The notes: generated by a model not told the origin, from the letters alone. DNA of 64,000 nt from Planctomycetota bacterium (GCA_965659285.1 CBFHWB010000002.1:3435-67434), one strand, 5' to 3'. Counted from the first letter of the stretch, positions 54,755 through 64,000 are shown. Numbers and translations are program-made.

Positions 54755-56095
54755 TCAGATGAACATCTCGGTGACCGGCTCGTCGGAATCGGCCATCTTG
54801 ATGGCGCGTCCAATGGCCAGCTTGTTCTCCTTGACCGGGTTGATCCGGAGCATGGAGAGCAGGGTCGAGTAGAGCTCGCCGACAAGGACGGGGCGGTTCC
54901 GTACCTCCTGCCCATCGGTGCTCGAGGAACCGATGACGGTCCCTCCCTTGACTCCGCCGCCGGCGACCATGGCGCTGAAGCAGCGCGGGAAGTGATCGCG
55001 TCCATTGTTGCGATTGATCTTCGGGGTTCTTCCGAACTCACCCATGCAGACGATCAGCGTCGAGTCGAGCAGACCCTTGGAGCGAAGCTCCTTCATGAGC
55101 CCGCTGAGGGCGGGGTCGAGGATCGCGGCTCGCGCGCTCACGGCGTTGAAGTTGTTGGTATGGGTGTCCCAGCCGCCGAGGTTCATCTGGACAAAGGGGA
55201 CGCCTTTTTGTACGAGCCGCGCCGCCATCAGCGACTGGAGGCCGAAATTGTTCAGGCCAAAGCCCTTGCGAACGGCCTCGGGCTCGTTACGGACATCGAA
55301 TACCTTGGCGCTGGGGGAGTCCAGGAGACTGAGAGCTTTCTTGCGCACGGTTCGGTGCCCGGCGAGGAACTCGCCGCGTTTCGAAGAGAGATACTTATTG
55401 TCGAGCATGCCAAGCAACCCGAGCCGGGAATTGAAGCGGCCCTTGTCCACGTCGCCGGGATACTGCAGATAGGGCACCGGGCGGGAGGGGTTGTCGACCT
55501 GGAAGGGTCCATAGCGCACTCCGAGGTAGCCCGGTCCGTAGGATCCTCCGCCGATCGAGACAAAGTGAGGGAGATCCGAGTTTTCCTTGCCCAATTCCTT
55601 GGCGACCAGGGCGCCGAAGGACGGGTGGGTGATCGCGCCGGTCATCCTGTAGCCGGTGTGCATCAGGTAGCTGCCGCGGGAGTGGTCTCCCTCGGGAGAG
55701 GTCAGGCTGCGGACAAGGCAGACATCCTTCGATTCCTTGGCGACCCCGGGGTAGTGCTGGGCGATCTGGAAGTCGCTGGCGGTATCGATCCCCTTGGTCT
55801 CTCCGCCGTTTTGATGGTCGGGCTTCGGATCCCAGGTGTCGAGCTGGCTGGGGCCGCCGCCGAGCCAGACCAGGATGCAGCTCTTGGCCTTGCCCTTTTG
55901 CCAGGGCTGTACGCCTCCGACAACCGTTTTGCCGCGGCTGTTGTCCTGGACCTGGAGCGGGGCGGCCGGGCTTCCAGAGGCCCAGCCAAGCACCATCGAG
56001 CAACCGAGTCCGCCGACTCCAACTCTGAGGAAGTCACGGCGGTCCTGGGAAGGGCTGCTGTGCTGCGTGGTCGATTTCGCATCAAGTGGTTTCAT
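54755..56095 (-). CDS. DUF1501 domain protein (sulfatase-like fold) with twin-arginine signal
   Basis: Tat motif RRDFLRVG. DUF1501 length and conserved blocks. Forms the canonical pair with the adjacent DUF1549/DUF1553 gene. Confidence 0.85.
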   Translation of the reverse strand: MKPLDAKSTTQHSSPSQDRRDFLRVGVGGLGCSMVLGWASGSPAAPLQVQDNSRGKTVVGGVQPWQKGKAKSCILVWLGGGPSQLDTWDPKPDHQNGGETKGIDTASDFQIAQHYPGVAKESKDVCLVRSLTSPEGDHSRGSYLMHTGYRMTGAITHPSFGALVAKELGKENSDLPHFVSIGGGSYGPGYLGVRYGPFQVDNPSRPVPYLQYPGDVDKGRFNSRLGLLGMLDNKYLSSKRGEFLAGHRTVRKKALSLLDSPSAKVFDVRNEPEAVRKGFGLNNFGLQSLMAARLVQKGVPFVQMNLGGWDTHTNNFNAVSARAAILDPALSGLMKELRSKGLLDSTLIVCMGEFGRTPKINRNNGRDHFPRCFSAMVAGGGVKGGTVIGSSSTDGQEVRNRPVLVGELYSTLLSMLRINPVKENKLAIGRAIKMADSDEPVTEMFI

Positions 56096-56148
56096 TTTCT
56101 TTCCTTTCGTGCCGCGCGGGATTCGCGAGACGTACGAGTTTCTTTCGT

Positions 56149-57909
56149 TTAGCTTGAATGCAGGAACTCCGCGGAGTTCAGCAGCGCCCAGTGAATATCA
56201 GCAAGCGCCGATTGCCGCTGGGCATCGTCCCGTGCTGATTGCGCGTGGCGGGTGAAGGCGCTTCGCTCGGCGGCCGAAGGCAGACGGCCCAGGCTCGCCA
56301 GGAAGAGCTGATCGACATGCCTGTTCGGCGCGATACCGTGCAGGACCACATCCAGGTTTCCAGGATACTTCTTCTGATAGCTGGCGTGATAGGGTCTCGA
56401 TGCCGGCGCCTTGCTCGATGTGAACTCACCGTTAAAGAGCAGCAGCACCTGCAGCACAGTCCCCTGGAACTCCATCCGCTTTTCTGTCTCGTCGACTCCG
56501 AAGCGCCTGACGAATTCGCGTTCAGCCTTCTGGACGTAGCTCTTCACCTGGCGGGCGTTGTTTTCCGGGTGGGGGTCTTCCATGCCGGTAGCTCTGAGGA
56601 CCGACCGCACCAGCACCTCGGGCTCGAGGGGGCGGATGGGGATGGTGGTGAAGAGGTCGTGTTCTTCTCCCGGCACGATTCCCCCGGGAACTCCCTGGAC
56701 AGCCTGCTGGCGGTAGGCTCTCGTCAGGACGATGATCTTCTGCAGCCGCCTGAGGTCGTAGCCGCTGGCCACGAAGTCCCGGGTCAGGTACTCGAGCACC
56801 CCGGGCAGGATGATCTTGGAGTCTTCCGAGAAGTCGTCGATCGGGTTGACGAAGCCCTTGCCGAGGAAGCGTGCCCAGACCCGGTTGACCAGGCTGCGCG
56901 CAAAGTACTTGTTCTTGTCCGAGGTCAGCCATTTGACCAGGTTCTTGCGCCGGTTGGAGGCCCCGTAGTCGGTAACCTTCGAGCCCTTGCGGGCCATCAT
57001 CATCTTCGATTCCATCTTCTTCCGGTCGAGCTTGCTGGCCCCGGTCTTCGGCTTGGGGAGGGGATCGAGAGGGCTGTAGTTTTCCGGCCTGTTGTAGCGT
57101 ACGCCGAAGTACATCGGCTGGATCTCCATGGCACGATGTCCTTTTTTCATCGGCGGCATGGTCAGCTCTCCACTGGCCCGGGAGCGGATCCCGTATCTGC
57201 GGGAATCGCCGCCGGCTCGGTCGTAGTCGCGGTAGCGCTGGGTGCGGGCAAAGAAGGCGGCAAAGCCGAAGAACTCCTCGCGTTTGACGTCAGCATAGGG
57301 GTGGTCATGGCATTGGGCGCATTCGATTCGAGTGCCGAGGAAGATTCGGGAGACCTTGCCGGCCATGTCTTCTGGCTTGGCTTCGTAGCGCAGGTAGAAG
57401 TTAACCGCAGGGTCGTTGCTGGGCAGGCCCGCGCTCAGGAGGATTTCACGTGAGAGCTCGTTGTAGGGTTTATTGGCCAGGAAGCTTTTCCGCAGCCAGG
57501 TGCGGAAGCTGCCGCGGTCGAGCCCGTCGGTATTTCCCTTTCTTCCGATCAGGGTGTGTTCCCAGACCTCTGCCTCGAACTCGGCATGATCGGGAGTCTG
57601 GAGAAACCAGCTTGACCATTTGCTGGCCTTGTTTCGCGAGCGGTCGTTGAGAAACTGGTCAATCTCATCCGGGTAGGGAATGACGCCCCGCAGATCGATC
57701 GACAAGCGCCTGAAAAAAGCTCTTTCCGAAGCCATCGGCGCCGCGTTGGTGAAGGCCTCGCTCCAGATCTCGCGGAGCAGCAGGTTGACGTCCGCCGCGG
57801 CTTTTTCAGGTTCAGGCAACTTGGGAGCGGCCTGGGTAGCAGTGCTCAGCAGGACACTGGAAAAAACGACCAGAATTCCGACAAGTCTGTTCTGTGAGGA
57901 GCTCATCAT
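56149..57909 (-). CDS. DUF1549/DUF1553 (PSD1-type) domain protein
   Basis: Signature block TRIECAQCHDHPY (DUF1549), with a DUF1553-type C-terminal half. Signal peptide after MMSSSQ. Confidence 0.85.
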   Translation of the reverse strand: MMSSSQNRLVGILVVFSSVLLSTATQAAPKLPEPEKAAADVNLLLREIWSEAFTNAAPMASERAFFRRLSIDLRGVIPYPDEIDQFLNDRSRNKASKWSSWFLQTPDHAEFEAEVWEHTLIGRKGNTDGLDRGSFRTWLRKSFLANKPYNELSREILLSAGLPSNDPAVNFYLRYEAKPEDMAGKVSRIFLGTRIECAQCHDHPYADVKREEFFGFAAFFARTQRYRDYDRAGGDSRRYGIRSRASGELTMPPMKKGHRAMEIQPMYFGVRYNRPENYSPLDPLPKPKTGASKLDRKKMESKMMMARKGSKVTDYGASNRRKNLVKWLTSDKNKYFARSLVNRVWARFLGKGFVNPIDDFSEDSKIILPGVLEYLTRDFVASGYDLRRLQKIIVLTRAYRQQAVQGVPGGIVPGEEHDLFTTIPIRPLEPEVLVRSVLRATGMEDPHPENNARQVKSYVQKAEREFVRRFGVDETEKRMEFQGTVLQVLLLFNGEFTSSKAPASRPYHASYQKKYPGNLDVVLHGIAPNRHVDQLFLASLGRLPSAAERSAFTRHAQSARDDAQRQSALADIHWALLNSAEFLHSS

Positions 57910-58075
57910 GCCTCTTTCAGTAGATCTAAGTGTATTCAAGCTTTGCACTACCCTCTAAGTTACCTATTATAGTTTGTTGGATTCGCTAACATCCAAATCT
58001 TTTCAGGGCTTCCATTTAGCCCAGTGGCCCATCTGTCTGCATTTCCGCCTGAAAAGCGGTTTTACCGGTGGTGAC

Positions 58076-59995: not shown

Positions 59996-61363
59996 TCAAG
60001 CTCCTGTCTCCTTCTCCGCGGGGATCTCGCTTCCATGCGGGTCGAGGTCCGGATTACCCAGCAGCTCCTCCAGTTCTTTGACAAGGCCGGGCTGTAGATG
60101 GTGCTCGATATGATCCGCCGCGTCGTGCACGTGGTCTGAGGCAGCTCCCATTTCGTGGATCATGTAGCTTTCCCAGAGGCGGTGGCCCCGGATGATTGCA
60201 GCGATCCGTTCGCGGCCCGTGGCGGTCAGGCTGAACGCTCCGCTTTCGACCTTTACCTCCCCTCGCGCCCTGCACCGCCTCAGCGCGCCACCGAGTTTTT
60301 CAGGCGGGTAGCCGAGGGGGGCGGCCACCTCCTCCATCCTGAAGCGCTGGTTGAAGATGCCCCCGGCGAGCCGGTAGATCGAGCCGAGCAGGTTTTCTTC
60401 CAGGATCCTCGATTCGAGGGTCCGCTTTCTCCAGGCCTGGGCCAGGAGTCCTTGTCCGGGGCTGAAGACCAGGGCGAGCAGGAATTGCAGGCCGGCAAAG
60501 ACGGCGACGGTTGGAGCCCGGGCGGTTTCGAAACTGACAGCCTCGAGGAGCACCGTCATCCAGGAGCCGAAGAAGGCGGCGCTGAGACCGAAGAGGGCGG
60601 AGAGCAGCAGAACTCTGTCGAAGCGCGAGCTGATGAGCTGGGCGGTGGCGGCGGGGATGATCAGCAGGGCGATCACCAGGATCGCGCCGACAGCCTCAAA
60701 GGCGACCACGATGGCCAGCGCCAGGAGGCTGGTCAGGAGCAGGTTCACCAGGCCTACGGGCAGCCCCAGCGTTCCGGCGAACTGGCTGTCAAAGGAGGTG
60801 ATGAGGATCTCCTTGTAGAAGCAGAGAAAAAAGATCACCACCAGGATGGAACACGCGAGGGTCGGTACGACCTGGTTGAGTTCGCCAATGACCTCCAGGG
60901 AACCGTAGAAAACGCAGTCCTGGTCAAAATGAGCGTCCCGAGCCGCCAGCCTGATGAGGATGACCCCGACCGCGAAGAAGGCGGGGAAGACCGCGCCAAG
61001 AGCCGTGTCAGGCTTGATGCGCGAGTACTTGTGCAGAGCCTCGATGAGCATCGTCGAGGCCAGCCCCGCCGCGAGCGCCCCTCCGAGGACAAAGAGCATC
61101 GTAGCCGAGGCGCCAAAGACGTGATCATCCTGTTCGAGGACGAGTCCGGCGAGCAGCAGGCCGCCGGCAATTCCCGGCAGGACGGAGTGGGAGACAGCGT
61201 CGCCGAGGAGCGCCGTGCGGCGCACCAGGAAGACGGAGCCGAGCAGGCCACAACTCATCGCCACGAGCAGGGCCATCAGCAGGGGCCAGGTGTCGATTTC
61301 CCAGTCGAACCAGAGCTCTGTGGCGGCCAGGCCAGGCCAGAATCTGAGTGGCAGGCAGCTCAT
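59996..61363 (-). CDS. metal (Mn/Zn/Fe) ABC transporter permease (ABC-3 family) with C-terminal DtxR-like repressor module (YtgC-YtgR-like fusion)
   Basis: N-terminal roughly 290 aa is an ABC-3 permease. The C-terminal roughly 150 aa aligns to DtxR over the HTH region (LLGSIYRLAGG...LGGALRRCRARGEVKV) and the metal-binding/dimerisation region (RGHRLWESYMIHEMGAASDHVHDAADHIEHHLQPGLVKELEELLGNPDLDPHGSEIP). Confidence 0.8.
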   Translation of the reverse strand: MSCLPLRFWPGLAATELWFDWEIDTWPLLMALLVAMSCGLLGSVFLVRRTALLGDAVSHSVLPGIAGGLLLAGLVLEQDDHVFGASATMLFVLGGALAAGLASTMLIEALHKYSRIKPDTALGAVFPAFFAVGVILIRLAARDAHFDQDCVFYGSLEVIGELNQVVPTLACSILVVIFFLCFYKEILITSFDSQFAGTLGLPVGLVNLLLTSLLALAIVVAFEAVGAILVIALLIIPAATAQLISSRFDRVLLLSALFGLSAAFFGSWMTVLLEAVSFETARAPTVAVFAGLQFLLALVFSPGQGLLAQAWRKRTLESRILEENLLGSIYRLAGGIFNQRFRMEEVAAPLGYPPEKLGGALRRCRARGEVKVESGAFSLTATGRERIAAIIRGHRLWESYMIHEMGAASDHVHDAADHIEHHLQPGLVKELEELLGNPDLDPHGSEIPAEKETGA

Positions 61364-62700
61364 GGCGTTCCTCCCTCGCTGAGGCCGGGAGGAATCTTTT
61401 TGCCATGCGGATCGGTCTCGGGATTGTCGAGGAGCGCCTCCAGCTCCCGCAATGTTTCAGAGTCGAGAAAGTGTTCTATCTCCTCGGCTCCAGCGTGCAC
61501 ATGGTCCGGGGCCAGCGAGGCCTCCCGCTGCAGGAAGATCTCCCACAGCCGGTGTCCACGCATCAGCGCGCGCGCGCGCTCCTGTCCCGCCGAGTTGAGG
61601 ACCAGGAGATCCTTCTCGAAACGCCCCCAGTTGGAGCCGTTCATGCGCCGGGCGAGGATCCTGGTGGCCGAGGGCTCTTCGCCTCGCTCCCTGGCAAGCT
61701 CACCGATCGGTATCGCGGCCAGCTCGCCGCCGCGTTCGCCGATCCGCCAGGCCGAGGTCAGCAGGTTTTCCCGCAGCGTCTTCAACTCGAGTCTCTTTTG
61801 CAGAAGATAGCGGCCGAGGACTCCATGATGGGGCGAGGCCAGGAATGCTGTCATGAGCCAGAGAAAGGCAAGGCAGACGATCGCCGGGCCTACTCCAATC
61901 CCGAATACGAAATCCAGGTAGACCCCTCCGAATCCCGACAGCGCCCCAAGGAAGGCTGAGAGCGCGATCATGCGTCCCAGGCGATCGGTCAGGAGATAGG
62001 CTGTCGCGGGGGGGATCACCAGCAGGGCGGCGACGAGGATGACCCCGAGAATTTTCAGGCTGACGACGATCACGAGCGTCAAGAGCAGCAGGAGCAGGCC
62101 ATCAAAGAGCCGCGGAGAGAGACCGATGGAGACCGTGAAAGACGGATCGAAGATCGACGCGGTAAGTTCCTTGAAAAACAGGCACAGCAGGGCGAGGACG
62201 ACCACGGCGGCTGAGACGAGGAAGACCAGGTCGACGGTCTGGATGATCGCAGGATTGCCGAAGAGATAGTGGTTCAGCCCCGAGGACTGGCTGCTCAGCT
62301 CAGGGCCGGCCCGGGTGATCCAGCTCAGCAGCCAGATGCCGATGGCGTAGAACAGGCTGAGGGTGATGCCGAGGCTTGCATCGTCCTTGATCGGCGAATA
62401 AGAGGTGATGGCCCGGGTCAGAGCGGCGGCGAGCAAGCCGGCCGCCAGGGAGCCCAGCAGGAGAGCCGGCGTGCTTTTACTGCCAGCCAGGATGAAGCCA
62501 ACAGCGACTCCCGGCAGCACCGCGTGGCCCAGCATGTCCGCGAAGAGCGCCATGCGCCGCAGTATGATGAAGCTGCCCAGTGCCCCGCAGGTCAGTCCCG
62601 CGAGGCAGGCGCCGAGGATGGCGCTGATGGTCGCCTGGGCGGCGTCGCCCCGGCCGAGCAGGCTCGAGAAAAATTCCCCGGTGAGTTCCGCGAAGCTCAT
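61360..62700 (-). CDS. second metal ABC transporter permease (ABC-3 family), also with C-terminal DtxR-like module
   Basis: ABC-3 permease core. C-terminal ...RGHRLWEIFLQREASLAPDHVHAGAEEIEHFLDSETLRELEALLDNPETDPHGKKIP is homologous to the DtxR metal-binding domain and is preceded by an HTH-like segment. ATGA overlaps on both sides. Confidence 0.8.
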   Translation of the reverse strand: MSFAELTGEFFSSLLGRGDAAQATISAILGACLAGLTCGALGSFIILRRMALFADMLGHAVLPGVAVGFILAGSKSTPALLLGSLAAGLLAAALTRAITSYSPIKDDASLGITLSLFYAIGIWLLSWITRAGPELSSQSSGLNHYLFGNPAIIQTVDLVFLVSAAVVVLALLCLFFKELTASIFDPSFTVSIGLSPRLFDGLLLLLLTLVIVVSLKILGVILVAALLVIPPATAYLLTDRLGRMIALSAFLGALSGFGGVYLDFVFGIGVGPAIVCLAFLWLMTAFLASPHHGVLGRYLLQKRLELKTLRENLLTSAWRIGERGGELAAIPIGELARERGEEPSATRILARRMNGSNWGRFEKDLLVLNSAGQERARALMRGHRLWEIFLQREASLAPDHVHAGAEEIEHFLDSETLRELEALLDNPETDPHGKKIPPGLSEGGTP

Positions 62701-63467
62701 TTCTTGCCGCTCTTTGACTGGCGGATGGCTTCGCCCGCCTGCGAGAGGACGGTGAGGTGTCCCCCGTAGGTCTTGCGCAGCAGCTCCTCGGTAAAGACCT
62801 CTTCGGTCGGACCGAAGGCGACCATGCGCCGGTTCAGCAGCAACAGGTGGTCGAAATATTCAGAGGCTGTCTGCAGATCGTGATGAACGACCAGGAGCGT
62901 TCCGCTCTCCGAGCGCATCTGCTCAAGCAGCTTGACGATGGTCTTTTCCGTGGTGGCATCGACCCCGGCGAAGGGTTCGTCCATGAGGTAGACCCGGCTC
63001 TCCTGGGCCAGCGCCCTGGCGAGGAAGATCCTCTGCTGTTGTCCTCCTGAGAGGTTGGCAATCTGACGGTCGGCGAAGGCCGTCATGCCGACCTGCTCCA
63101 GGGCCTCGTCGGCGATCTTCCGGTCCTCCGCCCCGGGCCGGCGAAGAAGGCCGAGATGGCCGTATCTTCCCATCAGCACCAGGTCGCGGACCGTGATCGG
63201 GAAGTCCCAGTCGATCTCCTCCCGCTGGGGAATGTAGCCGACCGTTTCGCGCTGCTGTTCAATCGGGTCGCCGTAGATCTTGACCCATCCTGAGGAGAGA
63301 TCGAGGAGCCCCATGCAGGCCTTGAGCAGGGTTGATTTCCCCGCGCCGTTGGGGCCGATGATTCCAACGAGGGCTCCTTCGGGAATCTCCACATCGATGT
63401 TCCAGAGGACGGGCTTCTGGTCGTAGGAGACCGTCAGGTCATGGATCTCAATCGGCGGCGCGGTCAT
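62697..63467 (-). CDS. metal ABC transporter ATP-binding protein
   Basis: Walker A (GPNGAGKST), ABC signature (LSGGQQQR), Walker B (VYLMDEP) and H-loop. Confidence 0.9.
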   Translation of the reverse strand: MTAPPIEIHDLTVSYDQKPVLWNIDVEIPEGALVGIIGPNGAGKSTLLKACMGLLDLSSGWVKIYGDPIEQQRETVGYIPQREEIDWDFPITVRDLVLMGRYGHLGLLRRPGAEDRKIADEALEQVGMTAFADRQIANLSGGQQQRIFLARALAQESRVYLMDEPFAGVDATTEKTIVKLLEQMRSESGTLLVVHHDLQTASEYFDHLLLLNRRMVAFGPTEEVFTEELLRKTYGGHLTVLSQAGEAIRQSKSGKK

Positions 63468-64000
63468 TTACTGTTACCGCTTTTTTCGCCAAGGGCGTTC
63501 ACGATCGTCTCGAGGTTGAACCGGAACATGCCGAGAAAGGACTCCGCGGGTGAGCCGGGTTCGCCGAGAGCGTCGCTGTAGAGCTCGTGCTCGTAGATTT
63601 TACAGCCGGCCTCCTCGGCGACCTTCTCCACGGCGTCGCGAGGTACCGAGGTCTCGGCGAAGATGATGGAGATGTCGTTCTCCCTGATGTACTTGACCGC
63701 CGCCCGGATGTTCTGGAGCCCGGGCTTGGTCTCTGTGCTGATGCCCTGCAGCCCTTTGACCTCGAATCCGTAGGCGCGGGCGAAATAATTGTAAGCATCG
63801 TGGCTGGTGACGACCTTGCGCTTGCGGGGAGGAAGCTGGGCTGTTTTTTCAAGCGCCCAGCCGTGGGTCTCCTCGATCTCCGCGAGATATGCCCGCGTCG
63901 CCGATGCGTGGCTCTCCGCGTTCTCCGGGTCGGCCTTCTCCAGTGCTTTTCCGGCCGTGGCCGCCGCGGTTTTCCAGAGCTGGAGATCGAACCAGAGATG
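63464..64000 (-). CDS. metal ABC transporter substrate-binding protein (TroA/ZnuA cluster-9 type), N-terminus beyond window
   Basis: Minus-strand frame translating ...ESFLGMFRFNLETIVNALGEKSGNSK* with the TGA overlapping the ATPase ATG (ATGA). The ORF continues open to the window end. It is not listed in the six-frame track in this frame. Confidence 0.65.
   Translation of the reverse strand, partial: HLWFDLQLWKTAAATAGKALEKADPENAESHASATRAYLAEIEETHGWALEKTAQLPPRKRKVVTSHDAYNYFARAYGFEVKGLQGISTETKPGLQNIRAAVKYIRENDISIIFAETSVPRDAVEKVAEEAGCKIYEHELYSDALGEPGSPAESFLGMFRFNLETIVNALGEKSGNSK

Follow-up and report, generated by a model that had tools for sequence, protein, structure and literature searches.

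The DNA analysed here is a stretch of 64,000 nucleotides from a Planctomycetota bacterium (GCA_965659285.1 CBFHWB010000002.1:3435-67434), referred to hereafter as the window, to whose full length the coordinates of the locus apply. Open reading frame calls and translation placed four genes on the minus strand between positions 59996 and 64000: a substrate-binding protein, an ATP-binding cassette (ABC) ATPase and two permeases, which we call permC (the first) and permD (the second). All three gene junctions are ATGA stop/start overlaps, the ATPase ATG overlapping the stop of the binding-protein gene and the permD ATG overlapping the stop of permC. An initial annotation of this DNA, made from the sequence alone, had described the same order and overlaps, and both were borne out by the reading frames and by Pfam matches (Table 1). 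The order is that of ytgABCD and troABCD, and the two ABC-3 permeases homologous to PsaC and ZnuB (permC membrane domain against PsaC 7kyp, E 1.7e-39, and against ZnuB 9oko, E 1e-16), together with the ABC ATPase, are features of a cluster A-I importer. The start of the binding-protein gene lies beyond position 64000, as does the operon promoter, which the annotation had also placed outside the window.

Both permeases continue beyond the membrane domain into a C-terminal tail of about 150 amino acids, which the annotation had read as a DtxR-type helix-turn-helix (HTH) joined to a metal-binding module; the strings that it quoted were located in permD. The Pfam family Fe_dep_repr_C (PF02742) matched both tails at 74-77 bits against a cut-off of 27, over profile positions 1-69 of 70 in permD and 3-69 of 70 in permC. 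In phmmer searches of the PDB, both tails aligned from about residue 5-26 to about residue 135 with DtxR-family regulators, including Mycobacterium tuberculosis MntR (5zr4), Deinococcus radiodurans DR2539 (8pvt), ScaR, SloR, IdeR and DtxR. AlphaFold2 models of the last 155/156 residues of the permeases, built with 71 and 64 homologues, reached a predicted local distance difference test (pLDDT) score of 88.3 and a predicted template modelling (pTM) score of 0.81 for the permD tail, and 89.3 and 0.83 for the permC tail. Both models have a long N-terminal helix, a helix-turn-helix, a beta-hairpin wing and three long helices. In them, one continuous helix of about 30 residues joins the membrane-domain end to alpha1, the helix with the Asn of the primary metal site. 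Foldseek comparison with the PDB returned DtxR-family proteins throughout the 50 matches listed per model (DR2539, IdeR and DtxR among those for the permC tail; DR2539, ScaR, MntR and DtxR among those for the permD tail). The best match was the Mn repressor DR2539 over about 130 columns, with a target-normalised TM-score of 0.78-0.83, and two-domain DtxR/IdeR chains gave 0.79-0.84. Profile and fold searches thus led to PF02742 and DtxR-family structures. According to the models, the winged HTH is present by fold but divergent in sequence in both tails, and each tail is a complete DNA-binding plus metal/dimerisation module that lacks a third, SH3/FeoA-like domain. The two modules are 38-40% identical to each other. 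Both are translated as the C-terminal part of a membrane protein with no internal stop, so that neither is a free soluble homodimer as encoded. The second permease is not a plain YtgD, and its module is the feature that sets the locus apart from ytgABCD.

Ligand positions were mapped by aligning the tails with DtxR (identical to PDB 1bi0) and MntR (PDB 1on1). The primary and ancillary ligand positions H79, E83, H98, E105 and H106 of DtxR were unchanged in both copies (H383, E387, H402, E409 and H410 in permC; H394, E398, H413, E420 and H421 in permD). DtxR M10 corresponds to Asn in both (N312 and N324, respectively) and C102 to E406 in permC and D417 in permD. All donors are O or N, neither Cys nor Met being among them, which is the pattern of Mn(II)-type family members. 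A DPHG motif is kept as well, its D430/H432 in permC and D441/H443 in permD equivalent to the ancillary ligands D126/H128 of DR2539, while D130 of DR2539 is replaced by Lys in permC and by Ser in permD. Across 90 dereplicated fused modules the ligand positions were near-invariant. The annotation had named loss of all ligand positions in both copies as the mark of a decayed relic; both copies keep them, and on that ground neither is one. Asn10 with Glu102 is the pattern reported for both treponemal TroR proteins (PMC2628430); permC has it, and permD has Asp at position 102.

The rest of the transporter was consistent with a metal importer. The full-length binding-protein orthologue of a close relative (L005) matched Treponema pallidum TroA (1toa) with E 7.5e-62, the next match being at 3e-38. 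The part of the binding protein in the window, its C-terminal half, keeps the TroA motifs VTSHDAYNYF (third His) and ELYSDALG (Asp), and the N-terminal His motifs DPH and HLE were seen in the full-length orthologues of relatives. NCBIfam matches, none of which reached the cut-off, fell partly to Zn models (AztABC) and partly to Mn/Fe models (MntABC, SitB); among these were AztC, MntC and EfaA for the binding protein and, as the best for the ATPase, the Mn/Fe ABC ATPase PRK15056 and MntA. Judged from these similarities, the system may import a divalent transition metal, Mn or Fe and possibly Zn. Elsewhere, one double-fusion operon (L010) adjoins ferritin and Bfd-type ferredoxin genes (694-1407) and another (L018) a ferrochelatase gene (853-1818). 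Such neighbours, which the window lacks, hint that the system is connected with iron in the organisms concerned.

Table 1. Coordinates of the metal-transport genes, their parts and adjoining features in the window
Feature	Residues	Position	Strand	Remarks
Substrate-binding protein, 3' part	last 178 aa + stop	63464-64000	minus	runs off window end; TroA-like, cluster A-I, Pfam ZnuA family
ABC ATPase, TroB/YtgB-like	256 aa	62697-63467	minus	Pfam ABC_tran E 3e-31
permC, whole gene	446 aa	61360-62700	minus	ABC-3 + DtxR-type module
permC membrane domain, TroC/YtgC position	1-292	61825-62700	minus	ABC-3 PF00950 E 1e-56
permC DtxR/TroR-type module	293-446	61363-61824	minus	PF02742 E 1e-21; stop 61360-61362
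permC recognition helix	E341-M353			EEPSATRILARRM
GC palindrome in permC module		61565-61580		AGCGCGCGCGCGCGCT
permD, whole gene	455 aa	59996-61363	minus	ABC-3 + DtxR-type module
permD membrane domain, TroD/YtgD position	1-302	60458-61363	minus	ABC-3 PF00950 E 8e-49
permD DtxR/TroR-type module	303-455	59999-60457	minus	PF02742 E 8e-21; stop 59996-59998
permD recognition helix	Y352-C364			YPPEKLGGALRRC
TPR-repeat gene	673 aa	57974-59995		convergent with permD
DUF1501 and PSCyt2/PSD1 (DUF1549/DUF1553) genes		54755-57948	minus	adjoining pair
Palindrome in the DUF1501/PSCyt2 pair		56164-56179		GAACTCCGCGGAGTTC

Downstream, the permD stop codon abuts that of a convergent gene for a tetratricopeptide repeat (TPR) protein, leaving no intergenic space for a separate regulator gene or for terminators on either strand. 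No separate troR gene follows the troD position, the regulator being fused instead, and neither the 64-kb window nor the flanking sequence of nine close relatives contained a separate DtxR-like gene. The DUF1501 and PSCyt2/PSD1 genes form what we take to be a typical planctomycete gene pair of unassigned function; the 16-bp palindrome within it recurs in relatives L001, L005 and L008. The palindrome in the permC module is 16 nt of alternating G and C within the coding region for alpha4 (...ERARALM...).

Occurrence and age of the double fusion

To place the architecture, we surveyed public sequences with one genome-contig scan based on a single query protein (nine close relatives), one metagenome scan and eleven exact-protein look-ups. 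The closest genomes were metagenome-assembled genomes (MAGs) of marine Planctomycetota, whose nine related loci are 75-96% identical, in keeping with the origin in the Planctomycetes-Verrucomicrobia-Chlamydiae (PVC) lineage proposed by the annotation. The double fusion was present at nine of nine related loci; at two of these, L001 and L006, the sequence breaks off within the first permease, whose module is retained. Look-ups with more distant permD-type fused proteins added five double fusions: a JGI contig in which the operon adjoins ferritin and Bfd genes, a Phycisphaerae MAG that also carries a divergent stand-alone DtxR-FeoA gene, GCA_013329015.1 with an adjoining ferrochelatase gene, GCA_029260515.1, and an Eremiobacterota MAG. 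When permC-type fused proteins were looked up (from Pelagicoccus of the Verrucomicrobiota, Armatimonadota and others), the fusions were single, as in Ytg. The metagenome scan, made with a permC-type alignment, yielded 80 loci that were classified with our own hidden Markov models of the module and the membrane domain. Among the 68 classifiable loci, 57 were fused in the first permease only, 10 in both and one in the downstream permease only. In this last case (L061, 1-1742), the reverse of Ytg, no DtxR module follows the upstream permease, whose gene is cut by the contig end.

In all, the double fusion was seen at 25 loci, or about 15% of the sampled loci with a fusion, in Planctomycetota (Phycisphaerae included) and Eremiobacterota, and PF02742 was present in about 105 of the 120 best protein clusters matching permD. 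The architecture is therefore not a one-off, and its conservation in many independent assemblies led us to reject an assembly or frameshift artefact. In the one survey statement located, single permease-repressor fusions occur in 11 phyla by the count of Thompson 2012, as cited in PMC5599777, an original survey that could not be checked. We found no paper describing the doubled form, in line with the annotation's claim that it was undescribed. The single fusion is known, and the doubled form recurs in public genomes and is widespread in these data.

Stand-alone DtxR-family genes were also found beside fused operons (L011, 1060-1725 minus; L017, 2712-3149 minus; and L019, L022, L040, L045, L050, L051, L055-L057, L060, L064, L065, L070, L074, L079, L086, L087, L094 and L098, among others); their products often have a third domain resembling FeoA and an HTH that Pfam matches normally. 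The stand-alone DtxR-like gene of L097 (1984-2529, plus) and of L098 (6423-7145, plus) comes after the second permease, which is the troABCDR arrangement. The first permease of L097 is already fused, and both permeases of L098 are, so that the latter would encode three DtxR modules in one operon. Two fused permease-DtxR genes (L013, 5001-6479; L100, 4001-5431) were orphans: within 4-5 kb of them there was no gene for an ATPase, a binding protein or a partner permease.

Trees of the modules and of the membrane domains were neighbour-joining trees without support values, transfer is possible, and the labels of L011 were swapped in the module tree; the groupings that follow are to be read accordingly. 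All fused modules formed one clade, apart from neighbouring stand-alone regulators and DtxR, in which the second-permease modules were a near-monophyletic group, sister to the first-permease modules. The membrane domains split perfectly into a first-permease clade that holds permC and a second-permease clade that holds permD, with fused second permeases scattered among unfused ones. Taken together, the two trees suggest an old double fusion that was repeatedly reduced to a single one by loss of the second module. A recent tandem duplication was rejected, given the low identity of the two modules and the separate old clades of the membrane domains.

Among eight close relatives, the ratio of nonsynonymous to synonymous substitution rates (dN/dS) was 0.14 for the membrane domain of both permeases, 0.07 (permC) and 0.10 (permD) for the metal/dimerisation part and 0.26 and 0.33, respectively, for the HTH part. 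These sequence comparisons point to purifying selection on both modules in all sub-regions. The recognition helix was conserved in the close clade, as ExPSxTRxLARRM in permC and GYPPxKLxxALRRC in permD. Two signatures were characteristic of the fused modules: the His of DHVH occurred in 85 of 90 fused and 2 of 25 stand-alone modules, and the Trp of HRLWE was likewise rare in stand-alone modules.

A candidate operator in related operons

In relatives, a perfect 22-bp palindrome, TTTATTACCCTAGGGTAATAAA, lies about 70-115 bp upstream of the start codon of the binding-protein gene. The palindrome or a variant of it was present in L002-L004 and L007-L009, within an otherwise diverged intergenic region. 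It was exact in L002 (2569-2590) and L003 (1646-1667), and exact and extended to 28 bp in L004 (2627-2654). L007 has one central mismatch and L008 a change in one arm, while in L009 (34-55) a matched double change, TTTGTTAC...GTAACAAA, makes the symmetry perfect again; in L005 the palindrome is degraded. The 155 kb examined held no further perfect palindrome of at least 20 bp. With its AT-rich arms, GC-rich centre and length of about 20 bp, the element resembles the DR2539 operator ATTTTAGTCGCGCCTAAAAT, and the tro operators are dyad-symmetric palindromes upstream of troA (PMC2628430). Searching the window with up to three mismatches gave no match, the promoter lying beyond its end. The L003 leader showed no sigma-70 consensus promoter and no terminator, and L002-L004 showed no Rfam family, Mn riboswitches included.

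The matched change on both arms argues that the element is read by two identical heads, and hence that the DNA-bound species would be one or more homodimers and not a permC/permD heterodimer; a homodimer on the palindrome is favoured because the recognition helices of permC and permD differ strongly. The heterodimeric regulation suggested by the annotation is accordingly not what we favour, and a symmetric repressor dimer would be the better fit to the candidate operator than a simple heterodimer.

Readings of the doubled module

We lean, with modest confidence, towards a TroABCD/YtgABCD-type metal importer in which both permeases end in a functional DtxR/TroR-type sensor, the logic of YtgC-YtgR being doubled by analogy. 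The modules would be made 1:1:1 with the transporter through translationally coupled genes, and proteolysis would free them from the membrane domains. Once freed, they would take up imported metal at both conserved sites, the primary and the ancillary, and symmetric module dimers would repress the operon at the palindromic operator just upstream of the binding-protein gene. We infer metal binding, cleavage and DNA binding, as well as the occupant of the operator, which may be one module or both as homodimers. The putative release of the modules is drawn by analogy from YtgR, which is cut away from YtgC and acts as an iron-dependent repressor of its own operon; the released protein is a 28-30 kDa fragment and is thought to dimerise only after cleavage (PMC5599777, PMC6504234, PMC7755916). 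In DR2539-DNA complexes, N-terminal residues of alpha1 touch the DNA backbone, and a tether entering at alpha1 would probably obstruct DNA binding, which favours release. To our knowledge, YtgC-YtgR is the one experimental system for fusions of this type, YtgR being the only member studied.

Several observations weigh against this reading. The Pfam family of the DtxR HTH, PF01325, was found in neither isolated tail even at E<=10. It was likewise absent from the precomputed Pfam annotation of the homologous protein clusters listed (240, of which about 220 have the fused domain). Across lineages the recognition helix was the least conserved part of the fused modules, at 1.5-2.1 bits compared with 3.1-3.5 bits for the metal helix and with 2.4 bits for the recognition helix of neighbouring stand-alone regulators. 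Among 40 distant loci scanned upstream (38 usable), strong inverted repeats occurred in five single-fusion and no double-fusion loci; the ten distant double-fusion operons without a strong palindrome were L010, L011, L018, L019, L057, L067, L086, L087, L094 and L098, and the operator motif is therefore not generalisable. In the metagenome sample a stand-alone DtxR-family gene adjoins 5 of 8 double and 18 of 57 single fused loci, which leaves the need for fused repressors at those loci to be explained, and the candidate operator could be the target of a regulator from elsewhere in the genome, of the Fur/Zur type or another.

Some of these points would also suit modules that never left the transporter. 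Held together beneath the permC-permD heterodimer, they would pair there and lock or slow the transporter on binding metal, DNA binding being secondary or lost; we regard this as unlikely, if worth keeping in view. The double fusion gives either half of a heterodimeric permease exactly one protomer of a sensor that is an obligate dimer. The last helix of the homologue PsaC, transmembrane helix 9 (TM9), is located in the dimer interface, and the C terminus tolerates a fusion to green fluorescent protein (PMC8346216); from the position of TM9, both tails should emerge side by side in the cytoplasm. The continuous helix into the ligand-bearing alpha1 would, in the models, serve as a rigid mechanical link. 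A metal/dimerisation domain far more constrained than the HTH, signatures rare in stand-alone regulators and the separate DtxR-type repressor gene at many loci would all suit a tethered sensor, whereas the released and DNA-binding YtgR of Chlamydia, the recognition helices conserved in the close clade under purifying selection on the HTH, and the conserved operator-like palindrome with no other regulator nearby would not. Most fused loci, moreover, are single and could not form such a dimer within one transporter. A wider conjecture, and equally doubtful, is that modules paired in cis under permC-permD would form a cytosolic metal gauge that gates import directly, by trans-inhibition passed along the rigid helix between the metal site and the last membrane helix, with DNA faces occluded until proteolysis, the double fusion being ancestral and the Ytg-like single fusions, and possibly troD-troR arrangements as well, derived by loss or fission.

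The difference between the two recognition helices bears on another possibility, to which we assign a still lower probability: that the permC module alone binds the operator, in the manner of YtgR and with a canonical PSxT-type helix, and that the permD module does not bind DNA or is targeted differently. The permD module could then act by drawing the permC module into heterodimers that are inactive, or by controlling other promoters. A perfect palindrome implies identical heads, yet the helices EEPSATRILARRM and YPPEKLGGALRRC differ strongly; the permD HTH evolves faster than that of permC (amino acid identity 0.63 vs 0.78, dN/dS 0.33 vs 0.26), and the second-permease modules form an old clade of their own and are often absent, suggesting an accessory role. 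The permD module nonetheless keeps every metal ligand, and its GYPPxKLxxALRRC helix is conserved across the clade. DR2539, which shares with it a Gly at DtxR position 43, binds DNA. DtxR-type operators can hold two dimers, as in DtxR/IdeR-DNA complexes, so that two different homodimers may share one palindrome. That one or both tails are non-functional remnants of an old fusion is highly improbable. The undetected Pfam HTH and the degraded palindrome of the close relative L005 would fit decay, but dN/dS of 0.07-0.33 in all sub-regions of both modules, ligands near-invariant across distant lineages, confident AlphaFold2 folds and an architecture kept from Planctomycetota to Eremiobacterota do not, and the data on selection and conservation essentially refute it.

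Comparison with known systems

A cytosolic, ligand-sensing dimeric domain carried by a transporter has precedents in the C2 domain of MetNI, in ModBC and in MalK, which offer a model for trans-inhibition. Those domains sit on ATPase subunits, have unrelated folds and lack a DNA-binding part. The best matches of the modules in sequence and fold, DR2539, M. tuberculosis MntR, ScaR and SloR, share their O/N-only ligands and the DPHG motif. The two-domain Mn regulators are free cytoplasmic dimers, and their full-length forms add a FeoA/SH3-like domain as the third; the DR2539 crystals are of a truncated, two-domain form. Unlike in these regulators, alpha1 here continues from the last membrane helix, and the fused modules have a Trp (HRLWE) and an extra His (DHVH) of their own.

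The comparison of the modules with TroR and YtgR is drawn from published descriptions and residue statements and not from sequence alignment. In the Treponema Tro system, TroA is the closest relative of the binding protein found here, whose orthologues in relatives show the His/His/His/Asp motifs. Like T. pallidum TroR, the modules lack an SH3-like domain and combine Asn10 with Glu102 (Asp in permD); the two-domain make-up is that of T. pallidum TroR and Bacillus subtilis MntR (PMC2628430). Palindromic operators lie upstream of troA, as does the candidate described above, and troR directly follows troD, at the very position where the permD module is fused. TroR, in contrast, is a separate soluble protein, and the present locus has two fused modules and no separate regulator gene. 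The annotation had matched the operon to ytgABCD; the order and the fused first permease uphold that match, while the locus is as much Tro-like, with TroA the closest relative of its binding protein and the Asn10/Glu102 pattern of TroR.

YtgABCD of Chlamydia trachomatis has the same gene order, and its first permease likewise joins an ABC-3 domain to a C-terminal DtxR-like module with conserved metal ligands; judged from the band of about 49 kDa for uncleaved YtgC, its size is similar to that of the fused permeases. By analogy, autoregulation by the imported metal would be the logic common to both. Here, unlike in Ytg, the permease at the YtgD position carries its own, anciently diverged module, and the host is a free-living marine planctomycete. 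Why the repressor is made as part of a transporter, and how it is released and dimerises, are open questions in the Ytg system. The doubled form sharpens them by placing one sensor protomer on each half of a heterodimeric permease, and it makes testable the pairing of modules while tethered, the gating of transport and the need for release before DNA binding. Free-living bacteria with the double fusion, a clean 22-bp candidate operator and no separate regulator in the sequenced flanks of relatives would offer a simpler experimental entry than an obligate intracellular pathogen. If the double fusion is indeed old and repeatedly reduced, the chlamydial YtgCR would be a derived form.

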